A program made the position numbers and the translations under genes. A DNA stretch of 64,000 nucleotides from a virus, in the IMG/VR virus record IMGVR_UViG_3300045988_072028, positions 32,001-96,000 of that record, one strand, 5' to 3'. The notes beneath the pieces were generated by a model. That model made no database searches. It was not told where the DNA came from and saw only the letters and a program-made list of their open reading frames with translations. Shown here in pieces: positions 6,452-61,352 of this stretch; position 1 is the first letter of the stretch, and each line of letters begins with the position of its first letter.

Positions 6452-9400
6452 ATGTCAAGTTGTGTCATTAAAAGAAATAAGGAGGGTAAGATAACCCGTG
6501 TCTTGACCCCTTCCGGAGAGGTATCCACCTTGTTCGATAAGATAGCGGGTATAGCCGCCGTAAGTGACCTTAATAAGGCCGCTGAGGCTTATATGACTAT
6601 TTATAACGATAAGTTCAGATCCAAGTTCGGAGACTGGACGAGATCCGTGCCAAGGAATAAGGAGGCGGCCAGATCCATAAGCGCCAGACTTAGCTCCAGC
6701 GAGTGGGGGCAACTTATGTCAGCCAAGGTCCTGTCCGCCATAAGCGATATGGATGCCCCGGCGTTGGCCAGAAGTCTCGGGAATAGCGACAATGTCGTGG
6801 CTTATCTTACCTCCGGAGAGGTAGGTGATGTCAATGATATGGCTGTGGTAGATACATCTACGGTACAGGAGGTGGATCTGGATTCCATAAACGAGGATAA
6901 TATTGGCGATACGATACTGAAAGAGGCGTCATGGGATGATATAAGGGCTATCAGGGAGAATATAGACATTAAGGAGACAGCCCGTATGTTATGGAAGGCC
7001 GTGGAAAGCGCTTTTACCGGGCAACGACCTAATATTAGGGTGAAAGGCGGAAGTATAGACGGGGAGATCATATTTTCTGGCAATGTCTTGCCGTTAAATA
7101 ATATTGAGAATTATACTCCTCCATCTTCAAGATTGGTATATGATTCCGGTGAGCCTCGCCTGTTCTTTAGATCGGATGACGGCAAGATACACGAATCTTA
7201 CGCCAACGCCATAAAAGGATCGTCCGGTGGGCGGGTCGAGGCCGGGTTCTTGGCCGGCAGTGTCGAGGAGAGCGACGTCCCGTCCGGTACGGCTGATATC
7301 TCCTTTGGCTCTTCCTCCATAACCCTTAATAACAGTGGGTCATTCATCCCGATCCTTGGTATTAGCTCAAACTCAGATGTAAGCACTCGTGGAGGGTTTG
7401 TTAATTACCTTATCAAGAAAGGTCTGTTGAGCGGGGAGCGTATAAGGCTAGGGGATAGGTATTATCTTACCGGTGCCGGCAATTCTGATGGTCTTAAGAT
7501 CTATAACGCTATGGATGCCTTGTCTAGGCTAAGGAATAGGTTTGGAAGTCAGTCCTCCGAAATGAACGTATTGGGTTCTATAGGTTTTGATACGGAGGTA
7601 AGTAATGATCTTGATCTTATCACGACATCAGGGGATAAGGTTACGGTAAGCAGATCGGAGATCAAGGGCATGTTAAGGCAAGGTAAGTTTGAGGAGCTTA
7701 ATAATAAGTATGATGGGTTCATGGAGCTAGCCTTGTCGTTGATGATGGAGGATAACGCCTTGTACGGAAGTAATGTCCGTGGGGTTATCGAGAATGAGAA
7801 GGCGGAGGATCTCCAGAATAGGACTGATATCACCAATATCTTATCCACGTTAGGTATCCGTGTGATGGGTATGTCTGAGTATATGGATAAGTATAAGATG
7901 CGTAATGGTGTCGAGCCTTCGGCTAGGGCATTGTCCGATATGGCCAATGGGGTTATCGCTTTGGCCGAGGGAGCTACGGTAGAGGATCTTAATGAGGAGG
8001 TGGCTCATTTCTTGATCGATACTTACCGTAACCAACAGGAGATTGACGAGGTTCTGGACTCTGTTGTCGGCACGCCATTATGGAATCAATTCGCCGGTCG
8101 TTACTATGAGGTGTATGGGAAGGAATACCAAGGGGAGGAACTGGATCGGATGGTGAAGCGGGAAATCCTAGGCAAGACGTTGGCCCAGCGGTTCGTCCCG
8201 GGTATGGAGCAGGCGGTGGAGGATCTGGCCTCGTCCGAGGATGCCCAGCTCTCCTTGTTTGGCAGGATAATCCGGGCTATACGGAATTTCTTCTCTACTC
8301 AAAGATCAGACTTGAATAAGGTTCTTGATAGGATAAAGGAGTCGGCGTTAGCTGATGATCCAAGCGCCTTTGACGTGCTTCTGTTAAAGGATAGCGACCA
8401 TCTCATGTACTCATTATCGGATGTTGATGTGGCTAATAAGCTGATCAAGAACGGTAGGTCATTGGAAAGACTATATACCAGATTGCAGAGGATGAGGTCA
8501 AGCCAAAGCCAGAGGATCGGGGAAAGCATCTCCCTTCTACGTGATATAGGCGAGAAGGTAAGACAAGTCGGGGGTGAGCTAAATAAGAATAACAACCTAT
8601 TATCCACCAAGAGCGTTATAGCTACAGCCAAGGCTGAGGTGGAGTATTTGGTCACTGTCGCCAGCAGCTTACGTAAGAGCGGGAAAGGATTGGATTATGA
8701 GACGATGCAGGTTATCGATAACGTATATGGGGAGATCGTGCCACTTGTCAGGAACCTTCGTGGATTCGTCAATAATCAGGCGGCTGATTATTATGGCAGC
8801 AATAAGGTTGGCATGGTAGAGGATATGGATGATATATTACGTATGGCTGAGACATCCATGTCAGATATAAACGCCCTTAAAAGTGATCGTAACGAGGATT
8901 GGCTGGATGGACAGCTTCGGATGTTCAATATCCCGGAAAGGTACTGGAATGGGATAAAGAAGTTGATAGATAACATCCATAAGGATATCAATGTCATGTC
9001 CCGGTTTTTCGGGACGTTAGAACATAGCGGTAACGCTATCCTAGGCATGTTAGGCCAACGTCTAGCCAAGGCTTATAACGACGCTCATGTTGAGGGTGTG
9101 GCTAATATCAATAAGATGACTAAGATGATGAAAGAGCGTGGATGGGGGATAAAGGATAATGAGGATCTTATACAGAAGATAAACGGTAAGAACTCGGATT
9201 ACCTTGACTCGTCCCGTGATTTCGCCAAATACGATTTACTGCTCAGGACCGAGCAGGCTAAGGCTATTATCGATATATATGATCTTAAGAATGTTACGGG
9301 TAAGACCGAGAAACAACTTATCGACCTTCTTCTATCCGATAGAGGCCTTAAGGTGAAGACCCGTGACGACATAGTAGGATATGACGGGGATAAGCCTATT

Positions 9401-12400
9401 ACGAAGGCCGTGTATCATGTATTCAAACCTACCATCCAGAATTTTGATATCTCGGACATGACGTTCGAGGATCAGCAACGGTATCTGGATACGATAAATA
9501 GGTGGTTGGATGAGAACCAAGAGAAACCTATGGTGCAGGCTTATTACGATAAGATCGAGAAAGTTAATAAGAAGGTCGAGGAAAGACTGGGTCGTAGGGT
9601 ATCGCAAGCCACGTCCGATTTCATGACCCGTATCCGTAGAAGCCGGTATGTGGCTATGGATAAGTTTATTAAGAACAAGAAGGTCGATTGGGACGCTTTC
9701 CAATCTGACCCTATAGCTTGGAGATCTTATCTGGATATCCTTCGTGATAGGGCTATAGCCAAGAGCGAGTGGTATTCCGACGGGACACCAAAGGAAGCGG
9801 GGTCCGAGGCGTTGATGATGTCCGAGGAGATCAAGGCATGGGACGAGGCGTGGGCCGAGGAGTTCGGGAATACCAACGAGGGTCGTAAGGCTTCAGCCGA
9901 GTTTAAGGAGATACTGCGTGGGATAGAGCGGTCCGAGGGCGGTAAGGCAGCATTCGAGTTCCTGCTAGCCGGTGGTCATCTTGGCTTCTCCAAGGATATG
10001 TGGGGATCCGAGGAGGGTGATTATTACGAGAATCTGGTTGATAAGATCACGGAGCAATCTGTATCATCATCAAGGATAGAGAAGGTAGAGGAGGCGATGG
10101 CAACAATAAATGAGATTAACGATCAGTTAAGACCTTTGCTTATTCAGTACCGGGACAGTACCAGATATGGCGAGTATGATTTCGATCGTCTTCGTGGATC
10201 ATCGTCATTAAGGAAGATAAACGAGCTATACGACCGTCTGGCCGAGGCCAAGAGTGTTATTAACGCCGCCGCTTCCGCTGAGGATATTGAGATGAATATG
10301 CCCGATACGGTGGAGAGTGGCGTTACAGATTCCTACCGTAATGCGTTAAGGGATGCCGTGACATACGACAAGGGAATGGATGAGATTAAATTCGCCAAGG
10401 AACATATGTCTGCCCGCTCCCGGAGTCAGGTAGATAGGATGGCCGCCAAGCTGTCACAGAAGAATCCATCATGGACATCCATGGAGACAACGTTCCTTAG
10501 AAAAAAATACGGTCCTGATTTCAGTGATAAGCTGGCTAATGATATAGCTATGGGTAAGGCTAATAGTATACTTATTGAGTATGCCAGAACCCGGCTATAT
10601 CCTTATATGAGAAAATACTCTCCCAAAGGGTATTCTGATTTTGTCAGGAAGATAAATAACGGTACGTATAAGGTGTCGGATTTTTTTGATGCCATGGAAA
10701 GCGGTATATCAAAGGAAGAAAGCGTGTCCCGTTTCGGCTTCGATATTAATATGATTGATTTGTCGATCAACAACCAATGGTTAGATGAGGCTGATTTCGA
10801 GAGTTCCTTCCGGAATCCTAATTATAATCCCGATCTAGGTTATGGATATCATACGCCTAGATTTGATAAGTACAAGAATGAGGCTTTCTTCAAAAAATAC
10901 GGTATTACCAAGGAAGGAGAGGAGGCCACGATCAACAAGGATAAGTGGGAGATGAGGAAGGAATTGCTTAACATAAGCCGTAAGGCTATGGAGGATTATG
11001 ATGAGCGTTTCAGGAATATCTACCAGATACCACAGATATCCAAGGGCGGAGTGGAGAGGATGGTGCAGGCCGGGGTTGACCCGAAGGCGGCCATCGGAAA
11101 CGCCGTACGTGACATCGTTGGCGAGAGGGTTGATGATCCCATACATGGTCAAGGACAAGACCTAGGAGGGCTTGATGAGAACGATAACAAATATCGCATG
11201 ATCCCCAAGTACTATCTGAGCAAGCTAGAGAATGCCGATGACGTATCCCATGACTTCGCGTACTCCTATTCTATGCTATCCCTTCAGGCGGCATCTTATA
11301 AGTATAAGAGAGCTGCTTTGGATGATGTTATGGGATATAGGAATATGATGCTTGAGACACAATATGATGGGGGAAAGAATCCAGAAGCCACTCATGCCTA
11401 CAGGATGTTTCAGGACTGGGTTAACGCCAGTATCTATGACGTTAGGATAAACAATAAGCGGACTGAATGGAATATAGGCAATTATAAGGTCGATCTTAAT
11501 AAGCTGGCCCTTATGTTTACCAAATTTGTGTCCAAATCCAACTTAGGCTTCTCCCCGTTCGTGGCGGCTACCGGTGCCCTTACCGGGCAGGCCAACTTCC
11601 TTTTGGAAGGTATGGTAGGACAGTACATAAGCAAGGACTCCATGAAATACGCTTATGGAGAAGCTCAGAAACAGTTAAGTACGTACGTGTCTGAGATCGG
11701 GGACATAAATCGTACCAATAAGTTATATGTTGTCGGTGAGGCCCTAGGCGTATTCAACGTTCGTAACCGTGTAAGATCGGCGGCATATAACAAGATCTGG
11801 AGAACCTTATTCCGGGACCTGCCGTTTAAGATGATGGAGGTTTTGAACTCTCCTTTGGATCCGCAGGTTATTATCTCGGTGATGGATGACACCCGCTTGT
11901 ATGAGGGTCAGTTCTGGTCATATTCTAATTTCAAGGAGATGATGATGAAGGACAGGAATATGTCCGCTAATGAGGCTAAACGTGATTGGGAGCGTTTAAG
12001 GGATTATTCCATATGGAACTTAGTAAATGTCAAGGACGGGAAGATCGTGGCTAAAAACGAGGCTAATAAGGATATTATAGACCGATACATACCTACATTG
12101 TCCAGCAGGGTCAGGAGTATGGTGCAGATATGCGACGGCGCCCTGAACGAGCAGAACCGGGTGGGGGCTAGCCGGAACGCGATCCTTAACATGGTGCTTC
12201 CTCATCGTGGATGGTTTATATTGGCTGTGCAGCGGGCGTATAAGAAAGCCGGTTTCAATTTCCAGACCAACCAGTTCGAGGAAGGATATATGAGGACATT
12301 ATGGCGATTGGCGGGGAATGTCTATAATACGATGTCCGAGGGTCGTATGGGGGAGGCGTATGACGTGCTTAAAGAGGAATATGATAAGCTTACACCTTAT

Positions 12401-12898
12401 GAGCAGGTTAATATCAAGAGATCTATTATCAATGTGGCGGTATTCGCCACGATGATGGCTATAGGAAGGGCTTTGATGGGATATAGGGAGGATAATGAGG
12501 ATAGCTGGTTCGGGCAGTTCATTACCTATATCGGGTTCAGGACGATCAATGAGATCGCTTCCCAGACATCCCCGTTCATGGAGCTTAACGCCATAGATAT
12601 GCTGCAAGATCCGCTGGTTACCGCCCGAAAGTTAGGCGATCTCACCGATCCTCGAAACTGGGATCCGTTCGCTACCGTCCAGACCGGCGTGTATAAGGGA
12701 GAGAGCAAGCTATGGAGGCAGCTCATGAAATTCTCGTTCGGTAAGCAATGGTATAATATCAAGACGGCTAGGGATATTAAGCAGACATCCGACTACTGGT
12801 TGATGACCAACGGCATGACGATGGGATTCTTCTTAGGAGGCAGGGATAAGGACGAGTCCGGGGAGGACGCTAATTGGTACTTTGACAGGGGAAGATAA
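6452..12898 (+). CDS. giant (2148 aa) virion-associated / ejected-cargo-type protein
   Basis: Uninterrupted 2148-codon ORF with a TATCTTTG box 17 nt upstream and a strong terminator downstream. The C-terminal ~200 aa carry hydrophobic helices (INVAVFATMMAIGRALMGY, FGQFITYIGF, YWLMTNGMTMGFFLGG). No DxDGD polymerase motif was found by eye. Confidence 0.85.
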   Translation: MSSCVIKRNKEGKITRVLTPSGEVSTLFDKIAGIAAVSDLNKAAEAYMTIYNDKFRSKFGDWTRSVPRNKEAARSISARLSSSEWGQLMSAKVLSAISDMDAPALARSLGNSDNVVAYLTSGEVGDVNDMAVVDTSTVQEVDLDSINEDNIGDTILKEASWDDIRAIRENIDIKETARMLWKAVESAFTGQRPNIRVKGGSIDGEIIFSGNVLPLNNIENYTPPSSRLVYDSGEPRLFFRSDDGKIHESYANAIKGSSGGRVEAGFLAGSVEESDVPSGTADISFGSSSITLNNSGSFIPILGISSNSDVSTRGGFVNYLIKKGLLSGERIRLGDRYYLTGAGNSDGLKIYNAMDALSRLRNRFGSQSSEMNVLGSIGFDTEVSNDLDLITTSGDKVTVSRSEIKGMLRQGKFEELNNKYDGFMELALSLMMEDNALYGSNVRGVIENEKAEDLQNRTDITNILSTLGIRVMGMSEYMDKYKMRNGVEPSARALSDMANGVIALAEGATVEDLNEEVAHFLIDTYRNQQEIDEVLDSVVGTPLWNQFAGRYYEVYGKEYQGEELDRMVKREILGKTLAQRFVPGMEQAVEDLASSEDAQLSLFGRIIRAIRNFFSTQRSDLNKVLDRIKESALADDPSAFDVLLLKDSDHLMYSLSDVDVANKLIKNGRSLERLYTRLQRMRSSQSQRIGESISLLRDIGEKVRQVGGELNKNNNLLSTKSVIATAKAEVEYLVTVASSLRKSGKGLDYETMQVIDNVYGEIVPLVRNLRGFVNNQAADYYGSNKVGMVEDMDDILRMAETSMSDINALKSDRNEDWLDGQLRMFNIPERYWNGIKKLIDNIHKDINVMSRFFGTLEHSGNAILGMLGQRLAKAYNDAHVEGVANINKMTKMMKERGWGIKDNEDLIQKINGKNSDYLDSSRDFAKYDLLLRTEQAKAIIDIYDLKNVTGKTEKQLIDLLLSDRGLKVKTRDDIVGYDGDKPITKAVYHVFKPTIQNFDISDMTFEDQQRYLDTINRWLDENQEKPMVQAYYDKIEKVNKKVEERLGRRVSQATSDFMTRIRRSRYVAMDKFIKNKKVDWDAFQSDPIAWRSYLDILRDRAIAKSEWYSDGTPKEAGSEALMMSEEIKAWDEAWAEEFGNTNEGRKASAEFKEILRGIERSEGGKAAFEFLLAGGHLGFSKDMWGSEEGDYYENLVDKITEQSVSSSRIEKVEEAMATINEINDQLRPLLIQYRDSTRYGEYDFDRLRGSSSLRKINELYDRLAEAKSVINAAASAEDIEMNMPDTVESGVTDSYRNALRDAVTYDKGMDEIKFAKEHMSARSRSQVDRMAAKLSQKNPSWTSMETTFLRKKYGPDFSDKLANDIAMGKANSILIEYARTRLYPYMRKYSPKGYSDFVRKINNGTYKVSDFFDAMESGISKEESVSRFGFDINMIDLSINNQWLDEADFESSFRNPNYNPDLGYGYHTPRFDKYKNEAFFKKYGITKEGEEATINKDKWEMRKELLNISRKAMEDYDERFRNIYQIPQISKGGVERMVQAGVDPKAAIGNAVRDIVGERVDDPIHGQGQDLGGLDENDNKYRMIPKYYLSKLENADDVSHDFAYSYSMLSLQAASYKYKRAALDDVMGYRNMMLETQYDGGKNPEATHAYRMFQDWVNASIYDVRINNKRTEWNIGNYKVDLNKLALMFTKFVSKSNLGFSPFVAATGALTGQANFLLEGMVGQYISKDSMKYAYGEAQKQLSTYVSEIGDINRTNKLYVVGEALGVFNVRNRVRSAAYNKIWRTLFRDLPFKMMEVLNSPLDPQVIISVMDDTRLYEGQFWSYSNFKEMMMKDRNMSANEAKRDWERLRDYSIWNLVNVKDGKIVAKNEANKDIIDRYIPTLSSRVRSMVQICDGALNEQNRVGASRNAILNMVLPHRGWFILAVQRAYKKAGFNFQTNQFEEGYMRTLWRLAGNVYNTMSEGRMGEAYDVLKEEYDKLTPYEQVNIKRSIINVAVFATMMAIGRALMGYREDNEDSWFGQFITYIGFRTINEIASQTSPFMELNAIDMLQDPLVTARKLGDLTDPRNWDPFATVQTGVYKGESKLWRQLMKFSFGKQWYNIKTARDIKQTSDYWLMTNGMTMGFFLGGRDKDESGEDANWYFDRGR

Positions 12899-20352: not shown

Positions 20353-20600
20353 GCTTAAATATAAATATATCCCTTCTAGTTCTCACGGATATACGTATTC
20401 GTACTCATCTGGGGGAGATGTCTTGTATTCAACATCGCACTCCATAGTTGTAAATTTCATAGAAAATCATAGAAATAATTAAGATATCCTACTCCATTTT
20501 AGACGCTTCAACACATCCGGTAACCCGGCTGCTCTGCGTCCGTATAGCCGCATCAACTCCTACGGCTTGTATGTTAATCGCGGCGTTGAGATCCCTGTCG
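20353..20600 (-). ncRNA. candidate TnpB omega/right-end RNA scaffold
   Basis: In characterised TnpB elements the guide RNA overlaps the 3' end of tnpB and the right end. Here the 136-nt downstream spacer holds a hairpin (GGAGtgcGATGT...ACATCTCC, minus sense) and a TTCTATGA direct repeat. The boundaries are not determined. Confidence 0.3.
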
Positions 20601-21643
20601 ATCTCCAAGCCACAATCTTTACAAACAAATGTTCGATCCGATAATTTCAGATCTTTATTCTTCCAACCACATCTTGAACAGGTTTTCGAGGATGGGTAAA
20701 AACGATCTATAACAATCAGTTCTTTACCATACCACCTACACTTGTATTCAAGTTGGTTACGGAACATCGAGAAAGAAGCATCATATACAGAACCGGCAAG
20801 TTTGTGATTCTGTAGCATACCGGAAGCATTTAGATTCTCAATACAGATAACATCGTAATTATTTACCAGCATCGTGGTCAAATTATGCATGTACCATGAA
20901 CGCTTGTTGGCTATATCACGATGAAGTCTTGATACTTTTAGCCTGCATTTGTTTCTTCGATTACTTCCTAATTTCTTTCTTGATAAATGCCGTTGCATCC
21001 TTTTTAACTTCGCTTGGTTCTCACAAAGAAAATGGGGATTCTCAACAGCAATCCCATCAGATAATGTAGCTAATGTCTTAATCCCTAAATCAACTCCGAC
21101 TGTTTTGCTAGTTTTCTGTTTGTAACACTGTTCTGTTTCTACAAGAACTGATACGAAATATTGACCAGCACGGTTCTTTGAAACGGTACAGGAGATAAAA
21201 CGAGCGTTGTCTGGAACTCCACGATCGATAACAATCTTAACCCATCCGATCTTTTCGATCCGGATCTTATTGTTAGTGATTTTAAACTTCGGGAACGGCA
21301 ATCTAAACGACTGGTTGTCGTGTTTATTTTTGTAATTCGGTTTACCGAGTTTTTCTTTCCTGTTCTTGTTGAAGTATTGTCTGGAGAACTCGATAAAATC
21401 ACGTTGCTTCTGCTGCAAGGTGGCTGCCGATACTTCATTTAACCAAGGTTTTTCAATAACAAGATCCGACTTTGTCGGGAATTTCGGATTATGGTTTGTT
21501 TCTTTATCGTATGAGTTAAATGAGTCAACACAAGCATTCCATACAACACGTACGCATCCGAATGTTTTTGCAAGAAGTTCTTCTTGTGTTTTGTTCGGAT
21601 ACATACGATATTTATATGAACGCTTTATTAGACTCATCATCAA
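20489..21643 (-). CDS. tnpB: TnpB (IS200/IS605-family OrfB, RuvC-type RNA-guided nuclease)
   Basis: N-terminal YKYRMYPNKTQEELL. RuvC-I GVDLGIK, RuvC-II ICIENLN, zinc finger CSRCG-x14-CKDCG, and RuvC-III DRDLNAAINI. Confidence 0.9.
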   Translation of the reverse strand: MMMSLIKRSYKYRMYPNKTQEELLAKTFGCVRVVWNACVDSFNSYDKETNHNPKFPTKSDLVIEKPWLNEVSAATLQQKQRDFIEFSRQYFNKNRKEKLGKPNYKNKHDNQSFRLPFPKFKITNNKIRIEKIGWVKIVIDRGVPDNARFISCTVSKNRAGQYFVSVLVETEQCYKQKTSKTVGVDLGIKTLATLSDGIAVENPHFLCENQAKLKRMQRHLSRKKLGSNRRNKCRLKVSRLHRDIANKRSWYMHNLTTMLVNNYDVICIENLNASGMLQNHKLAGSVYDASFSMFRNQLEYKCRWYGKELIVIDRFYPSSKTCSRCGWKNKDLKLSDRTFVCKDCGLEIDRDLNAAINIQAVGVDAAIRTQSSRVTGCVEASKME

Positions 21644-31591: not shown

Positions 31592-32617
31592 TTAATCTTT
31601 TTTATTCTTTCTTTTTGACTCATCCCAATTCGATGAATATCTGCATGTCCCTTGTTTATGAATTGAGAAATCGCACCAAAAACACAAGGGCTTGGGGCGG
31701 GGTTCAAGGCAGGCCGGCTGGCGTCCCATGAGGTAGCGTGTCTCGTATTTATACTCTTGCTTGACATCGTCCCAAACGTGAGCTTGATAGCTATTGATTT
31801 TATTTGTTTCGAAATCATACATATCAAGAAGAATATCATTAAGCTCCTTGACTGACCTCTCTACCTTTTCCTTATCTACCTTCACGTTTTGGTTATCCAA
31901 CATACGGGTAAAAAAATAGCTACACATATCTGGTAATACCTTATACTTCCTGTATATATAAAAGGCGTATATCGGATGCTGGAGATTGTGAAGCAATTTA
32001 TCCTTATCGAATAATTTTCTCCCGGACTTCCAGTCTATCGTATACATAGCTGTTCTGTCTTTTGTCTTATACTCACCTCTCCAGTCTACTGATCCTATGA
32101 TATGTACCTTATCGTACGTCACGCCATCCAAGGTAAGGGGCTTGGGCAGCTTATAAGGCAGGACGAAGCCCTCCTCCACGCCGGCCGGTCTCGACCCCCG
32201 GATTACCTTCTCCATTGGCGTAAGATCAGACCATGCCTTCTTATAATTGCCAGCAGCATCCTTCTCAAACAACCCCACAATCCATCTTATTAGCCTAGCC
32301 GCATGTTGCATAGACTCGATCTGGGATTTTACGCTATCAAAAGGAATCTTCTCTATATCCGCATAGTAATTGAAAGCCTTACTCATATCCTCATAAGAAG
32401 GTCTACATCCGTTCTTGAAGAAATACTCCATTGTCTGGTGGATAACCGTACCATATGACGTAGCCTCGTGCTTCTCCGTGGATCTGTGACCCTCCACGTA
32501 AGTCTTATACCACTTATACGGACATTGGACGAACGTGTCTATCTGTGAATAGGATGTGGCAAGAACCTTCTCTCCGTTTATGACCTTGCATAACAAATTA
32601 TTCTCCGGTATCACCAT
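31592..32617 (-). CDS. PD-(D/E)XK nuclease, Cas4/RecB-like with Cys cluster
   Basis: N-terminal SYSQIDTFVQCPYKWY, core IGSVDW...YTIDWKSGRK, and C-terminal CFWCDFSIHKQGTC (one N-terminal plus three C-terminal Cys, the Fe-S pattern). Confidence 0.7.
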   Translation of the reverse strand: MVIPENNLLCKVINGEKVLATSYSQIDTFVQCPYKWYKTYVEGHRSTEKHEATSYGTVIHQTMEYFFKNGCRPSYEDMSKAFNYYADIEKIPFDSVKSQIESMQHAARLIRWIVGLFEKDAAGNYKKAWSDLTPMEKVIRGSRPAGVEEGFVLPYKLPKPLTLDGVTYDKVHIIGSVDWRGEYKTKDRTAMYTIDWKSGRKLFDKDKLLHNLQHPIYAFYIYRKYKVLPDMCSYFFTRMLDNQNVKVDKEKVERSVKELNDILLDMYDFETNKINSYQAHVWDDVKQEYKYETRYLMGRQPACLEPRPKPLCFWCDFSIHKQGTCRYSSNWDESKRKNKKD

Positions 32618-54770: not shown

Positions 54771-54903
54771 TTTCCTCCGCATCACCCTATACTAATAAAC
54801 AATATCCACCACCAATAACACCATACCCACCATCACTCACAACTACCTTGCCTTGACGGGGAACTCCTACCACTTGCAAACTTTTACATTTGATTGGAAG
54901 ATA

Positions 54904-55003
54904 CCCCTTGCTTGAAAGGCGTTTTCCTTGCTCGAAAGGTGTTTCCCTTGTTTGTTGGTGTTTTTTCTTGTTTGGAAAGGTTTTTCCTTGTTTGGAGGTG
55001 TCC
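54904..55003. repeat. five tandem 20-bp direct repeats (iteron-like)
   Basis: Units are CCCCTTGCTTGAAAGGCGTT, TTCCTTGCTCGAAAGGTGTT, TCCCTTGTTTGTTGGTGTTT, TTTCTTGTTTGGAAAGGTTT and TTCCTTGTTTGGAGGTGTCC. The CTTG core recurs at exactly 20-bp spacing. Confidence 0.85.
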
Positions 55004-55086: not shown

Positions 55087-55290
55087 TCAGTCTAGGATAT
55101 CGAGGTCTTTGTTCTTGATTGCCTTATATACTTGCCTAATACAATGTATTGATAATAAAACCAATAAAGAAACTATGATTATAGGCAGAGCGTCGCCCGT
55201 AGCTATAACGTACCGCCCCAACTCAAACGCCATATACCCACAAAACAAGGTGAGTACGAAATATATAAATACACCCATAAAAATATACAA
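55087..55290 (-). CDS. small membrane protein (two TM helices)
   Basis: FMGVFIYFVLTLFCGYMAF and LPIIIVSLLVLLSI. An isolated ORF within the non-coding region. Confidence 0.45.
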   Translation of the reverse strand: MYIFMGVFIYFVLTLFCGYMAFELGRYVIATGDALPIIIVSLLVLLSIHCIRQVYKAIKNKDLDILD

Positions 55291-55635
55291 TAAGTAACCA
55301 CGATTTTAAAATTGAACGCAAATAATACAATTAATTGAGTATCAATAAAATAATATATATCAACCCCTAGAGCTACCTCTAAGGAAAGACAAGCCTAGAT
55401 ATAGATAAAAAATATACAATAAGTACCGCCTATTATATACCTTTTAGGATCGATTCAAGCGCAAATCCATGCATAAGGGTACAATTCACCCGCCCGTATG
55501 GATATAGACATATACAAAATGATACATAATAAAGTATTTTACTTACATATTTATAATTAAGGCTTAAAATTTACCGCCTCAACACTTTTATATGTAAGCA
55601 AAACATATGATTATGCTGTCATTTTGTAAAATTAG

Positions 55636-55681
55636 ACACAAAAAAGCCCTTTCGTCCTATATCACTACAGTACGGAAGGGC
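55636..55681 (-). terminator. rho-independent terminator
   Basis: Minus sense reads GCCCTTCCGT...ACGAAAGGGC followed by TTTTTTGTG, just after the stop of 55714..55920. Confidence 0.7.
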
Positions 55682-55713
55682 ACAAACTTTAAAATCAAAT
55701 AAAAACAAACGAT

Positions 55714-55920
55714 CTATTGTCGCAATTTGTTTGCCATGTAACTAACATGTTTCCGCCTACATTTATCAGATTCCCTACTGCAATCTAATTTATTAGACTT
55801 GTATAGTTCTTTGGTAAGCTCAATATAAAACTCAATTTGAGACTTTCTTATAGCTTCTAAAGCCTTTTCTTTTTGAATAGATAGTTTCCTATTCAAATTA
55901 TCAAATTTCTTTTTGTACAT
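55714..55920 (-). CDS. small basic coiled-coil protein
   Basis: 68-aa ORF preceded by GC-rich element C and followed by a hairpin terminator. Confidence 0.5.
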   Translation of the reverse strand: MYKKKFDNLNRKLSIQKEKALEAIRKSQIEFYIELTKELYKSNKLDCSRESDKCRRKHVSYMANKLRQ

Positions 55921-55940
55921 AATATATTCATTTAATTACA

Positions 55941-56030
55941 CCAATAAGAATACGGCACGGCTATGAAGGCACAAAGCCGCCGTTATCGATACGGACAGCA
56001 GAGCACACCACGCCCGCCCGTCTCCGTTGG
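55941..56030 (-). repeat. GC-rich intergenic element C
   Basis: Minus sense reads CCAACGGAGACGGGCGGGCGTGGTG...TTCTTATTGG. Confidence 0.6.
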
Positions 56031-56387
56031 ATTTGTCCCTTTGCCCCGAACGAACGAAGCCAAATACGTACATACGTCACCCGTGATACGTACCGACAAG
56101 GCGTATTAAGTCCGTCAATTTAACCGCACTAAATACCCTTGTAAGGGTTGTTATTTGCTATCCGTACACATGTTAGGTATTTAAGCAACCCTAACATACG
56201 TCGTATTGATACATTAGCACGGAAATAACACCGTAATACACTCAATGCGTGCTACTCTCACAACGCACTAACATACGCCCTATACATGCGTATATACACC
56301 AACGTACCCCGTATTATAATACGGCCTATTAAGGAGACCTTAACGTACTAACCCTACTTGCAATAAGGCCAAAAGGATAACGGTACG
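55950..56387. repeat. dense cluster of ATACG/CGTAT (TACG-core) motifs
   Basis: ATACG starts at 55950, 55989, 56064, 56072, 56086, 56196, 56273 and 56319. CGTAT starts at 56102, 56202, 56289 and 56310. Several CGTAC/GTACG copies are also present, and there is a palindrome ATACGTCGTAT at 56196-56206. Confidence 0.8.
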
Positions 56388-56576
56388 TCTCCGGACTGGC
56401 AACGCACCCAAATCACATTGTTAAGCGGCGATCTATCTATACATGCTATCGATACCCTACCAGCATGTATATCCTTATTGCAATATGTTAAATAACTCGC
56501 TATTTTAGTCTGAGTCCAGTTGCGCGACGGGGACGCAATAGCATGCAACCACGACGGGCTATTATAGCCCGCCTAA

Positions 56577-57116
56577 TTATCTATCATTTTTAGGGTGCGT
56601 TAGGTAGTAAGTAATACATTTGGCTATCAAATTATATGTGTATCGCTTGATAGGTATAGCTACTTTGATGATACGTTTATCCGATCCATTAAACACCTCA
56701 TAGTAAGGCACGCTACCCGTGTCGTTGTATGCTATAGGCTCACAATATCCAAAGCGTTTATGCGTATTGCCTATTATAGCAATTTCGTTTATCTTATCCT
56801 CTGATAATTTCACATTCTTTTCCGCATCCTGCTTGTCGTAATATTCTCTTTCCACCTCTTTATATGCGCAAAAAGTATTGTCAATACGTGGAAGGATCTC
56901 TTTACAAAGTTGTATTACAACCTCTTTATCTTTAGCTAATGATACCAAAGCGGGTACAATTTCCTTATCTACCTTGATATCATTTTCCTTTAATATCTCA
57001 TTTATTTCTTTACCAGATTTAAAAAGTTGGGCCCATGCCTTTACGGCACCTGTTAACGTCTTTTCACTTGCCTTCTTTACCTCGCTTTGTACTTTAGTTA
57101 ACTCTTTATTTGTCAT
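56577..57116 (-). CDS. hypothetical protein
   Basis: 179-aa ORF transcribed divergently from 57634..58185. Confidence 0.55.
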   Translation of the reverse strand: MTNKELTKVQSEVKKASEKTLTGAVKAWAQLFKSGKEINEILKENDIKVDKEIVPALVSLAKDKEVVIQLCKEILPRIDNTFCAYKEVEREYYDKQDAEKNVKLSEDKINEIAIIGNTHKRFGYCEPIAYNDTGSVPYYEVFNGSDKRIIKVAIPIKRYTYNLIAKCITYYLTHPKNDR

Positions 57117-57339
57117 TAGATTTTACCCATACCTTTGGGATTTATATTGGCTTCTGGTACGCCAGTTTGTTAATATTGTTATCTCACATTGCAAATATAA
57201 TACATGTTTTATTGTCAAACAAATATTTTACAATAAAAATTCAACGATTATATATAATAAAACTAATCAAATGCAAATGTATATTAAAATATTGGTTTAT
57301 ATAATTGATAATCAACTATTTAAATGAAAAATAAGCATT

Positions 57340-57520
57340 CTTTTTTTCGGTTCGCTGATCGTTTGCCGTTCTTGTTTCCCGTCCTTCGTGGATTGGGGGG
57401 GGCTGGTCCAAAAACGGCAGCCCGGCCGGGCCGATTTCGGGGAGGTGGTCCGTCCCGCATATCCCCGCATATCCCTACATGTCCGGCGTCCCAACATATC
57501 CCATCTCTCATCCCCTAACG
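57340..57520. promoter_or_regulatory. GC-rich island in a divergent intergenic region
   Basis: Contains a stem GCCGTTCTTG (57365-57374) / CAAAAACGGC (57409-57418) enclosing a G8 tract (57395-57402). Also a 12-bp palindrome GCCCGGCCGGGC (57420-57431). Tandem 10-mers CCGCATATCC, CCGCATATCC and CTACATGTCC span 57455-57484, with CAACATATCC at 57492-57501. Confidence 0.6.
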
Positions 57521-57593
57521 ACTTTCTCATTAATTTTATTACATTTGCGATATAATTAAAACATAACATATTATGAATAAAGAAGTTGAATAC

Positions 57594-57610
57594 ATGGGGG
57601 GGGTATTTAA
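57594..57610 (+). promoter_or_regulatory. G9 homopolymer abutting a TATTTAAG box upstream of the plus-strand island
   Basis: ATGGGGGGGGGTATTTAAG. G9 occupies 57594-57602, 32 nt before the ATG at 57634. Confidence 0.4.
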
Positions 57611-57633
57611 GACCCCTCAGATAAGGAGGGGGT

Positions 57634-61119: not shown

Positions 61120-61195
61120 TGGGGAGTGGGGGAATCGAACCCTTATCCACGCTACGATTAGGAATCGTAAATTCTATCCGTTAAATTAACTCCCC
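61120..61195 (-). tRNA. tRNA-Arg (anticodon CCT)
   Basis: A hand fold of the minus-sense 76 nt gives a 7-bp acceptor GGGGAGT/ACTCCCC, a D stem ATTT/GAAT and an anticodon stem TACGA/TCGTA with loop TTCCTAA. The T loop is TTCGATT. The T stem has only 3 GC pairs plus two A-C mismatches, and the variable loop is 8 nt. Confidence 0.6.
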
Positions 61196-61278
61196 TTTAA
61201 GCGTCCTGATCCTCCCGGACAAGGACACTACATAAATCTAAACTCTAAACCTAATGACAAATTCTATTAATCCAACTG

Positions 61279-61352
61279 TGGACCCGGCCGGACTTGAACC
61301 GACAACCTACTGGTTATGAGCCAATTGCTCTTACCAATTGAGCTACGGGTCC
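61279..61352 (-). tRNA. tRNA-Met or tRNA-Ile2 (anticodon CAT), elongator type
   Basis: A hand fold of 74 nt gives acceptor GGACCCG/CGGGTCC, a D stem GCTC/GAGC and an anticodon stem ATTGG/CCAGT with loop CTCATAA. The T arm is GTCGG-TTCAAGT-CCGGC. The G1-C72 pair argues against an initiator. Confidence 0.85.

Follow-up and report, generated by a model that had tools for sequence, protein, structure and literature searches.

The DNA analysed here, hereafter the window, is a 64,000-nucleotide (nt) stretch of virus DNA, namely positions 32,001 to 96,000 of the IMG/VR record IMGVR_UViG_3300045988_072028. Our subject is the spacer that separates two minus-strand open reading frames (ORFs) of the window, which encode proteins of 179 amino acids (aa; 56577-57116) and 68 aa (55714-55920), and the large structured RNA that this spacer very probably encodes on the same strand. 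A previous description of the window, hereafter the sequence-only reading, had presented positions 55941-56576 as a 636-base-pair (bp) ORF-free segment saturated with ATACG/CGTAT and CGTAC motifs, which could be either a multi-site protein-binding region or a gene for a structured non-coding RNA.

Motif content and absence of coding capacity

All twelve ATACG/CGTAT pentamers counted in the sequence-only reading are present (8 ATACG and 4 CGTAT at 55950-56323), as are the CGTAC/GTACG copies in the same region (5 CGTAC and 1 GTACG). The enrichment is real, yet smaller than stated there: the random expectation had been put at less than one, and the window-wide rate is 2.1 per 636 bp. The k-mer check that had been proposed shows that the pentamers are not equally frequent across the window (Poisson P(>=12) = 2e-6; the next-richest segment contains 6). 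Dinucleotide-preserving shuffles of the region contain 4.2 +- 1.9 pentamers, with 1 of 2000 shuffles reaching 12, and ATACG is the most over-represented pentamer of the region. The CpG-rich composition is equally evident, with an observed/expected ratio of 1.50 against 0.95 for the window; the GC content of the region is 0.42-0.44, whereas the DNA immediately downstream on the plus strand has ~0.30-0.32 and the gene that borders the region at its opposite end has 0.35-0.41. Each palindrome and inverted repeat that had been listed was located as well, with three starts displaced by one nucleotide, such that TAACATACG begins at 56192 and 56269, and ATACATGCT at 56439.

The gene-free span proved to be longer than described, comprising 656 bp (55921-56576), and it is devoid of conserved ORFs rather than of ORFs altogether. 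Three mechanical ORFs of 45, 48 and 64 aa lie within it, and the two on the minus strand are intact in only 4/77 and 2/77 of the relatives introduced below. Stop codons are present in all six frames, with all three kinds in five frames and 11 TAA/TAG codons in the remaining one, and the lengths of indel runs among the relatives leave remainders of 1, 2 and 0 upon division by three in 521, 332 and 19 cases, respectively.

Conservation, base pairing and strand

The search of IMG/VR with the 179-aa protein yielded 125 relatives on contigs of up to ~150-160 kilobases (kb), of which 80 were kept as loci; MT836733, the one relative that blastn found among phage records (80% identity), brings the set to 81 loci. 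In every one of these 81 loci, 650-684 nt of spacer separate the 179-aa gene from a small basic ORF, so that lack of conservation, which the sequence-only reading had listed among the outcomes that would speak against its proposal, is not what is found. Alignment A2, to which the column numbers below refer, consists of 77 distinct spacer homologs in the minus-strand orientation. They are 72-96% identical to the window, and invariant blocks alternate with variable ones; in the pairwise comparison with MT836733, blocks of ~98% (56030-56155) and 100% (56270-56312) identity are set between variable blocks rich in small indels.

RNAalifold predicts 148 pairs on A2, 60 of them with compensatory double changes, and a separate scan for covarying helices arrived at the same set together with two crossing ones, 43-49/72-78 and 53-58/91-97, that constitute a pseudoknot. 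The curated structure comprises 192 pairs in 26 helices, with one pseudoknot. We compared this structure with shuffles and with slid controls, in which the 3' partners of the helices were moved by 1-3 columns. Standard pairs account for 96.8% of the cells (35-47% in the slid controls and 88.5% in the shuffles), double changes occur in 75 pairs (15-32 and 53.9 +- 2.6, respectively), and the covariation score is 0.314 (0.05-0.07 and 0.162); not one of 500 shuffles reaches the observed value on any of the three measures. Individual pairs switch between at least three Watson-Crick types, for example, 55-95 (UA in 35 sequences, CG in 32, GC in 10) and 56-94 (UA 30, AU 28, CG 19) in the pseudoknot and 124-247 (CG 47, GC 26, UA 4) in what is described below as Domain 2, where the pair 210-230 occurs as six pair types. 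At least 20 helices of the fold are supported by covariation.

Many of the conserved pairs, including 180-203, 184-198, 309-407 and 537-553, are G-U pairs that are possible on the minus strand only, and the alignment folds at -279 kcal/mol on the minus strand versus -172 kcal/mol on the plus strand. Taken together, the G-U pairs and the folding energy identify the minus strand, that is, the strand of the flanking genes, as the RNA strand. The spacer accordingly contains a conserved, strand-specific, non-coding, multi-domain RNA fold, and, of the two possibilities raised for it originally, it is the structured RNA gene that receives strong support, from covariation, from strand asymmetry and from the conservation seen in other clades.

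Anatomy of the RNA

The features of the RNA are listed below in 5' to 3' order on the minus strand. Homologs in other clades are those of the closest named phage, csAssE-Sib (OR575929.1, our locus L082; 151,256 bp, human gut), and of three contigs of distant subfamilies, L444, L445 and L446, whose homologs of the 179-aa protein are 38-45% identical to that of the window.

55938-56572, minus strand: conserved structured RNA of ~635 nt (alignment A2), its 5' limit being a hairpin that immediately follows the stop codon of the preceding gene and its 3' limit the invariant UUCUUAUUGG, 20 nt ahead of the ATG that comes next
56555-56571, minus strand: P0, the GC-rich hairpin CGGGCUAUAAUAGCCCG that immediately follows the stop codon and folds at -17.1 kcal/mol (z = -3.4)
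56499-56551, minus strand: 5' pseudoknot domain, with P1 formed by UGGUUGC/GCAACUG and with GCUAUU pairing downstream with AAUAGC
56485-56494, minus strand: near-universal conserved strand UAUUUAACAU, which the window shares with L444, L445 and L446; the csAssE-Sib version reads UAUUUUACAU
56358-56483, minus strand: Domain 2, an 11-bp closing helix UUGCAAUAAGG/CCUUAUUGCAA around three hairpins (helices 7-10; 27 pairs with double changes)
56309-56344, minus strand: two short hairpins, GUUAAGG..CCUUAAU and CCGUAU..AUACGG (helices 12 and 13)
56208-56308, minus strand: Domain 3, an 11-bp closing helix around three hairpins (helices 14-17)
56166-56201, minus strand: hairpin in which the stem evolves fast while the loop GCUUAAAUAC is conserved (helix 18; 10/11 pairs with double changes)
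56037-56147, minus strand: Domain 4, a four-way junction in which the closing stem CCCUU/AAGGG joins three arms (helices 19-22)
55941-56030, minus strand: G-rich 3' segment, conserved in sequence with weak covariation (helices 23-26, in which only one-sided changes from G-C to G-U occur)

P0 coincides with the terminal palindrome GGGCTATTATAGCCC of the sequence-only reading; its pairs 16-37 and 17-36 switch among GC, CG, UG and UA, and an equivalent hairpin of unrelated sequence is found in every clade (L444, L445, L446 and L082). The 5' pseudoknot domain is the part of the RNA that is most widely conserved across clades. The loop of P1 contains a 3-bp hairpin with a 7-nt loop, and the P1 pair 47-74 is UA in 45 sequences, GC in 26 and AU in 5. 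The adjacent strand UAUUUAACAU belongs to a predicted long-range helix (helix 5) that shows no double changes and is thus without covariation support.

Helix 8 of Domain 2 corresponds to the previously noticed inverted repeat ATACATGCT...AGCATGTAT. Among the pairs of the two short hairpins that follow, 273-285 (UA 42, CG 34) and 274-284 (AU 40, CG 35) in helix 12 and 295-302 (GC 45, AU 24) in helix 13 change by double substitution. Domain 3 includes an almost invariant UAUACGC-loop-GCGUAUG hairpin at 56272-56294, which falls in the block that is identical in MT836733. Domain 4, which lies in the other highly conserved block, contains an arm formed by GGUACGUAU and GUACGUAUU at 56061-56095 and a T-arm-like hairpin, GCUUCG-UUCGUU-CGGGGC, at 56043-56060; its pair 569-576 is GC in 55 sequences and CG in 22. 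In the 3' segment, which is the stretch that blastn still aligns to the distant clades L444 and L446, a hairpin at 55981-55993 displays the self-complementary loop AUCGAU (or AUUGAU).

The abundance of ATACG/CGTAT and CGTAC is a side effect of this fold, in which many helices consist of (G)UACGUAU-type strings. Ten of the twelve pentamers lie wholly or largely within helix strands, and several are partners of one another: AUACG at 56289-56293 pairs with CGUAU at 56273-56277, CGUAU at 56319-56323 pairs with AUACG at 56310-56314, and the strands GGUACGUAU and GUACGUAUU pair together. Because UACGUA-type strings are nearly self-complementary, each such helix yields the same strand-symmetric pentamer twice. 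An oddity of k-mer usage in raw sequence can thus flag a structured RNA gene.

Homologous RNAs in other phage clades

The phage csAssE-Sib is a relative of the window, with 52% identity between the helicases and 30% between the 179-aa homologs. In its clade, a syntenic structured RNA of ~545 nt, which we denote type B as opposed to type A of the window, follows the gene (75 sequences, that is, csAssE-Sib and 74 distinct relatives). The type B structure consists of 167 pairs, of which 31 show double changes, with 98.2% canonical pairing, and the alignment folds at -247 kcal/mol compared to -197 kcal/mol on the other strand. The 5' pseudoknot of type B has the same architecture as that of type A, with compensatory changes of its own. 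A covariance model built from the type A 5' domain only (R1) was matched over its full length by the DNA that immediately follows the gene in L445 (E 3e-7), csAssE-Sib (E 0.005) and five further type B loci (E 0.004-0.03). At its 3' end, type B has an acceptor-like stem and a canonical T-arm, UCCGG-UUCGAUU-CCGGA, which reads AGGG-UUCAAUU-CCCU in L445; one could speculate that this tRNA-like module is used for processing or for engaging tRNA-binding factors.

GenBank annotates a 95-aa 'hypothetical protein' (WOZ57218.1; L082 556-843, minus strand) over the type B RNA of csAssE-Sib. This ORF is intact in 1/75 of the relatives, and the coding sequence (CDS) is probably a mis-annotation; with this correction of the public record, the 'hypothetical protein' becomes part of an RNA.

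In the three distant-subfamily contigs, ~630-660 nt after the gene are gene-free. The A2 profile aligns to L444, where the gene homolog is 38% identical, over positions 7-652 (E 3e-46) and to L446 over almost the full length (E 2e-26), and the type B profile matches L445 (E 4e-29). The window RNA shares 56% identity with those of L444 and L446, in which 139/189 and 117/170 pairs are still canonical and 38 and 36 compensatory changes have occurred relative to the window, respectively. Between these two clades and the window, DNA can be aligned only in part of the RNA and in the control region upstream of the gene, and the coding DNA of L444 and L446 no longer aligns with that of the window.

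A scan of IMG/VR with the protein alignment retrieved the same clade only, and, among the searches directed at further clades, P0128 gave no match in IMG/VR or in the JGI metagenomes and P0121 matched this clade only. A csAssE-type gene and RNA were also found on L282 (NZ_DXLG01000138.1), a 3.9-kb contig of a metagenome-assembled genome (MAG) labelled 'Veillonella sp.' (csAssE profile, E 9e-208), which is most likely a mis-binned phage contig and thus no evidence of the host. The search for hosts in bacterial genomes returned only this mis-binned MAG contig and a 268-bp fragment. The phages with this RNA probably infect Bacteroidota.

Flanking genes and predicted transcription unit

The RNA lies between the following features:

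57187-57291, minus strand: conserved upstream control region with two TAnnTTTG boxes, 57274-57281 and 57192-57199 (motif scan)
56577-57116, minus strand: gene for the 179-aa orphan protein, always directly upstream of the RNA (81/81 clade loci, the csAssE clade, L444, L445 and L446)
55714-55920, minus strand: 68-aa strongly basic ORF downstream of the RNA, with the C-terminus SY(M/L)ANKxRQ common to the clades
55640-55681, minus strand: hairpin GCCCUUCCGU...ACGAAAGGGC with a U6 run behind it, similar to an intrinsic terminator, immediately beyond the 68-aa ORF (-18.6 kcal/mol, z = -3.05)

The linkage of the RNA to the 179-aa gene persists across at least four clades. The 179-aa proteins form a small family of orphans, which is reduced to 42 representatives at 50% identity and falls into 1320 clusters at 90%, some of which contain up to ~2000 member sequences; IMG/VR contains at least 338 loci. 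Neither this protein nor any of ten surrounding ORFs has a match in Pfam or PHROG. For the 179-aa protein, a confident AlphaFold2 model (pLDDT 84.8) was compared with the Protein Data Bank by Foldseek and gave no match at E<=0.001, and none below E 0.1, and no RNA-binding domain was found in this protein. The DNA of the 68-aa ORF is 89.9% identical within the clade, and a small basic ORF follows the RNA in all clades where the contig reaches far enough. The immediate downstream neighbour varies, with a 56-aa ORF inserted in about three quarters (~3/4) of the csAssE-clade loci and a 95-aa ORF in L444.

The motif TAnnTTTG, which we take to be the consensus of the Bacteroidota-type -7 box, occurs 40-130 nt upstream of the gene in 69/80 loci, and the motif scan detected no such box between the gene and the RNA. 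The region 57187-57291 is 78-82% identical at the DNA level even to L444 and L446, where the 179-aa protein is only ~38% identical, and is likely to be the promoter of the unit consisting of the gene, the RNA and the basic ORF. Such identity is unusual for a promoter or control region. We also considered a link to RNA repair, as genes for a polynucleotide kinase and NrnA lie nearby in csAssE-Sib, and rejected it given that their homologs in the window are 27-42 kb away.

Comparison with known RNAs

The sequence-only reading assigned the segment to no known element, correctly so: the Rfam search it suggested produced no Rfam 15 match for it, not even with the cut-off relaxed to E<=10. When cmscan was run with all 4227 models of this release at the gathering thresholds, the whole window yielded only two tRNAs (61120-61352), and a permissive cmscan of 55200-57300 at E<=10 gave no match inside 55921-56576. 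The RNA matches none of the Rfam 15 families, GOLLD, ROOL, OLE, HEARO and raiA included. For the type B and distant homologs, the Rfam models returned nothing except for a 15-nt T-arm match to the model of transfer-messenger RNA (tmRNA) in L445 (E 0.78), and ARAGORN made no tRNA or tmRNA prediction for either the region or the RNAs of type B. A group I or group II intron was considered and discarded: there is no Rfam intron match, the upstream ORF is full-length compared to its homologs and has its own stop codon, and the downstream ORF has its own ATG and encodes a separate conserved protein. Full-text literature search for six conserved 18-19-mers found no paper, the bulk catalogue of viral RNA candidates (PMC10690425; 10,006 candidates), which may contain fragments, being outside this search; a literature search for csAssE-Sib found none either.

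In size and general character, the RNA resembles GOLLD and ROOL, large ornate non-coding RNAs of 500-800 nt that are in many cases encoded by phages and prophages and are rich in covarying helices and pseudoknots. Cryo-electron microscopy (cryo-EM) has shown that both assemble into homo-oligomers (PMC12286853), and, speculatively, the self-complementary AUCGAU/AUUGAU loop of the 3' segment could mediate self-association of the RNA described here. The RNA differs from these two in that it does not match their Rfam models, has another helix layout and is located between two protein genes in one probable transcription unit rather than beside tRNA genes (the nearest is 4.5 kb away). A different parallel is OLE, a structured RNA of ~600 nt that is encoded in a protein-coding operon beside the gene for its partner protein and forms an RNA-protein complex (PMC3413148, PMC11332333). 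The RNA described here is, likewise, a large structured RNA embedded in an operon next to a conserved gene, and the conserved linkage of RNA and potential partner gene that marks an OLE-like arrangement is observed. OLE, however, is bacterial (extremophilic Firmicutes) and membrane-associated through OapA, whereas the RNA in question has no sequence or model match to it, and its neighbour proteins belong to no Pfam families.

Some likeness to tRNA and tmRNA is apparent in type B, where a UUCGAUU or UUCAAUU loop on a 5-bp stem is followed by an acceptor-like 3' strand, and in the window RNA, where a 6-bp hairpin with a UUCGUU loop occupies the equivalent junction. Anticodon arm, D arm and CCA end are all missing, and the loop of the window RNA is one nucleotide short of a T-loop. 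The phi29 pRNA, which is likewise phage-encoded, is a structured non-coding RNA that acts in trans through its fold and loop-loop contacts and forms multimers on the packaging motor. It is, however, only ~170 nt long, its Rfam models give no match here, and no link of the RNA to packaging genes was seen in the window. ColE1 RNA II, a structured transcript of ~550 nt, is comparable in that it runs toward origin-like features, here, iteron-like repeats and AT-rich DNA downstream of the RNA; it differs in having a handful of stem-loops against ~26 helices and a pseudoknot, and in the window a protein ORF and a terminator stand between the RNA and the repeats.

Interpretation and alternative explanations

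We conclude with high confidence that the minus strand of positions 55938-56572 encodes a large non-coding RNA (~635 nt) with a high degree of structure. The best reading of the element is that it represents a new class of large 'ornate' phage RNA, absent from Rfam and from the searched literature. The RNA would have no promoter of its own: its transcript would start at the conserved Bacteroidota-type promoter upstream of the 179-aa gene, with which the RNA is probably co-transcribed, and would end at the terminator after the 68-aa basic ORF, upon which the RNA may be trimmed. The product would act as a folded RNA, not as DNA or mRNA, and its likeliest form would be a stable trans-acting RNA or RNA-protein particle that functions during infection, possibly together with the two co-conserved orphan proteins. 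It would share the broad type of GOLLD, ROOL and OLE, to which it is not homologous. Given an RNA gene, we consider it reasonably likely that it acts as a folded, probably trans-acting RNA or RNA-protein complex; a partnership with the flanking proteins, in particular, appears rather unlikely at present. In a broader scenario that we advance tentatively, this undescribed class of ornate RNA, specific to abundant ~150-kb human-gut phages, would form a dedicated RNA-protein or multimeric particle with the two orphan proteins, or else be a ribozyme, and would serve an infection step that has no known protein-only equivalent, with one subtype engaging the tRNA-handling machinery of the host via its tRNA-like module.

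Several observations weigh against this interpretation. The last ~90 nt of the RNA change one-sidedly only. The aligned sequences come mostly from one close clade, so that the cell counts overstate the number of independent events, a concern that the slid-register control and the distant clades lessen without removing it. The tie of the flanking proteins to the RNA is one of genomic linkage, and the 179-aa protein has no recognisable RNA-binding fold. In the region examined, no separate promoter or 3' end was found for the RNA, which could be an unusually long structured 3' untranslated region (UTR) or intercistronic region, and the transcript, its ends and its stability are all deduced from features of the DNA. 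Finally, the homology of types A and B beyond the 5' domain relies on synteny and similar architecture, with no significant sequence match.

The most probable of the alternatives is a cis-acting element of the operon, which would control translation, decay or read-through either as a very long, structured 3'UTR belonging to the 179-aa mRNA or as the leader of the small basic ORF. No TAnnTTTG box separates the gene from the RNA, which begins within a few nucleotides of the stop codon and ends 20 nt before the next ATG, with the invariant UUCUUAUUGG just upstream of that ATG, all as would be expected of such an element. Nevertheless, ~635 nt with ~26 helices and a pseudoknot far exceed the needs of known leaders and UTR elements, and the downstream neighbour is variable due to the insertions of the 56-aa and 95-aa ORFs, which means that the RNA does not serve the basic ORF as a dedicated leader; we therefore regard a cis-acting role as unlikely. 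A function at the DNA level, as a replication origin, a packaging site or an array of ATACG-type binding sites, or, in a variant of this idea, as the source of a priming transcript similar to ColE1 RNA II, would account for the significant enrichment of the pentamer and would fit the iteron-like 20-nt repeats and the AT-rich stretch 250-1000 bp downstream (54905-54974 and 55298-55713), near which metagenomic contigs tend to end. The motifs are, however, irregularly spaced, most of them being helix strands, and form no regularly spaced direct repeats; TRF and a repeat finder report no array inside 55921-56576, only short two-copy matches. What is conserved is the pairing rather than the motif sequence, with the stems changing by compensatory substitutions, and the G-U pairs make the constraint strand-specific, which sites in duplex DNA cannot explain. 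The proposal of a multi-site protein-binding DNA region thus fares poorly, and we judge the DNA-level explanation to be quite improbable.

The element could also be a highly diverged version of a known large RNA, such as a group I or II intron, GOLLD, ROOL, OLE, RNase P RNA or tmRNA, all the more so as its size and structural complexity are comparable and T-arm-like structures are present (the hairpin of Domain 4 in the window; the acceptor-like stem with the canonical T-arm in type B). With no Rfam 15 match, no tRNA or tmRNA predicted by ARAGORN, and flanking ORFs that are complete genes rather than split exons, this origin has a very small probability. Some gut phages reassign stop codons, and one could imagine that the spacer is translated under an alternative genetic code or with frameshifts, the more so as the homologous stretch of csAssE-Sib carries an annotated 95-aa CDS. 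The coding explanation is effectively refuted by the stop codons in all frames, of all three kinds in five, by indels that overwhelmingly are not multiples of three, and by the csAssE CDS being open in 1/75 relatives, and can be given next to no weight.

The structured RNA gene, which we favour over these alternatives, is carried by phages that are very common in human gut metagenomes. To our knowledge, only about a dozen classes of bacterial and phage RNAs longer than ~400 nt with such a density of conserved structure are known, and almost all of these proved to be ribozymes, cores of RNA-protein complexes or, most recently, self-assembling RNA cages. The covariation-rich alignment, the two structural subtypes and the two candidate partner proteins are suited for use in cryo-EM, probing and genetics.

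Repeats, contig ends and other features of the window

Direct repeats of iteron-like appearance lie at 54905-54974 (context 54776-54990), where CCCTTGCTTGAAAGGCGTTT occurs in 2.5 copies and is followed by 2.8 copies of CTTGTTTGTT. Alignments of related loci break at these repeats, and 12 IMG/VR contigs of the clade end at ~54855-54981; candidate explanations are an origin or packaging site, a terminus of the genome, and a hypervariable hot spot at which assemblies break. Downstream of the terminator, the stretch 55298-55713 is AT-rich (GC ~0.30) and poor in ORFs, and it contains a 26-nt inverted repeat (55525-55550 / 55590-55615). On the opposite side of the unit, the G/C-rich stretch 57380-57620 contains 2.2 copies of CCCGCATATC at 57454-57475; at 57459-57600, related loci are enlarged by insertions that reach 1.2 kb, and the ends of about ten contigs fall within 57400-57620. 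In the csAssE clade, contig ends cluster likewise on both sides of the gene-RNA module; this module of ~2.5 kb may be bounded by genome ends or by a terminal repeat.

Elsewhere in the window, the plus-strand ORF at 6452-12898 (2148 aa) matches phrog_37651, 'virion structural protein' (E 7e-79). Giant virion proteins of such size in Bacteroidota phages can be virion-packaged RNA polymerases; if this ORF encodes one, it would bear on the transcription of the early region that holds the RNA. The minus-strand ORF at 20489-21643 (384 aa) matches phrog_506, 'transposase' (E 5e-122), and such a transposase-type gene in a large, lytic-looking phage genome may bring guide or end RNAs of its own.

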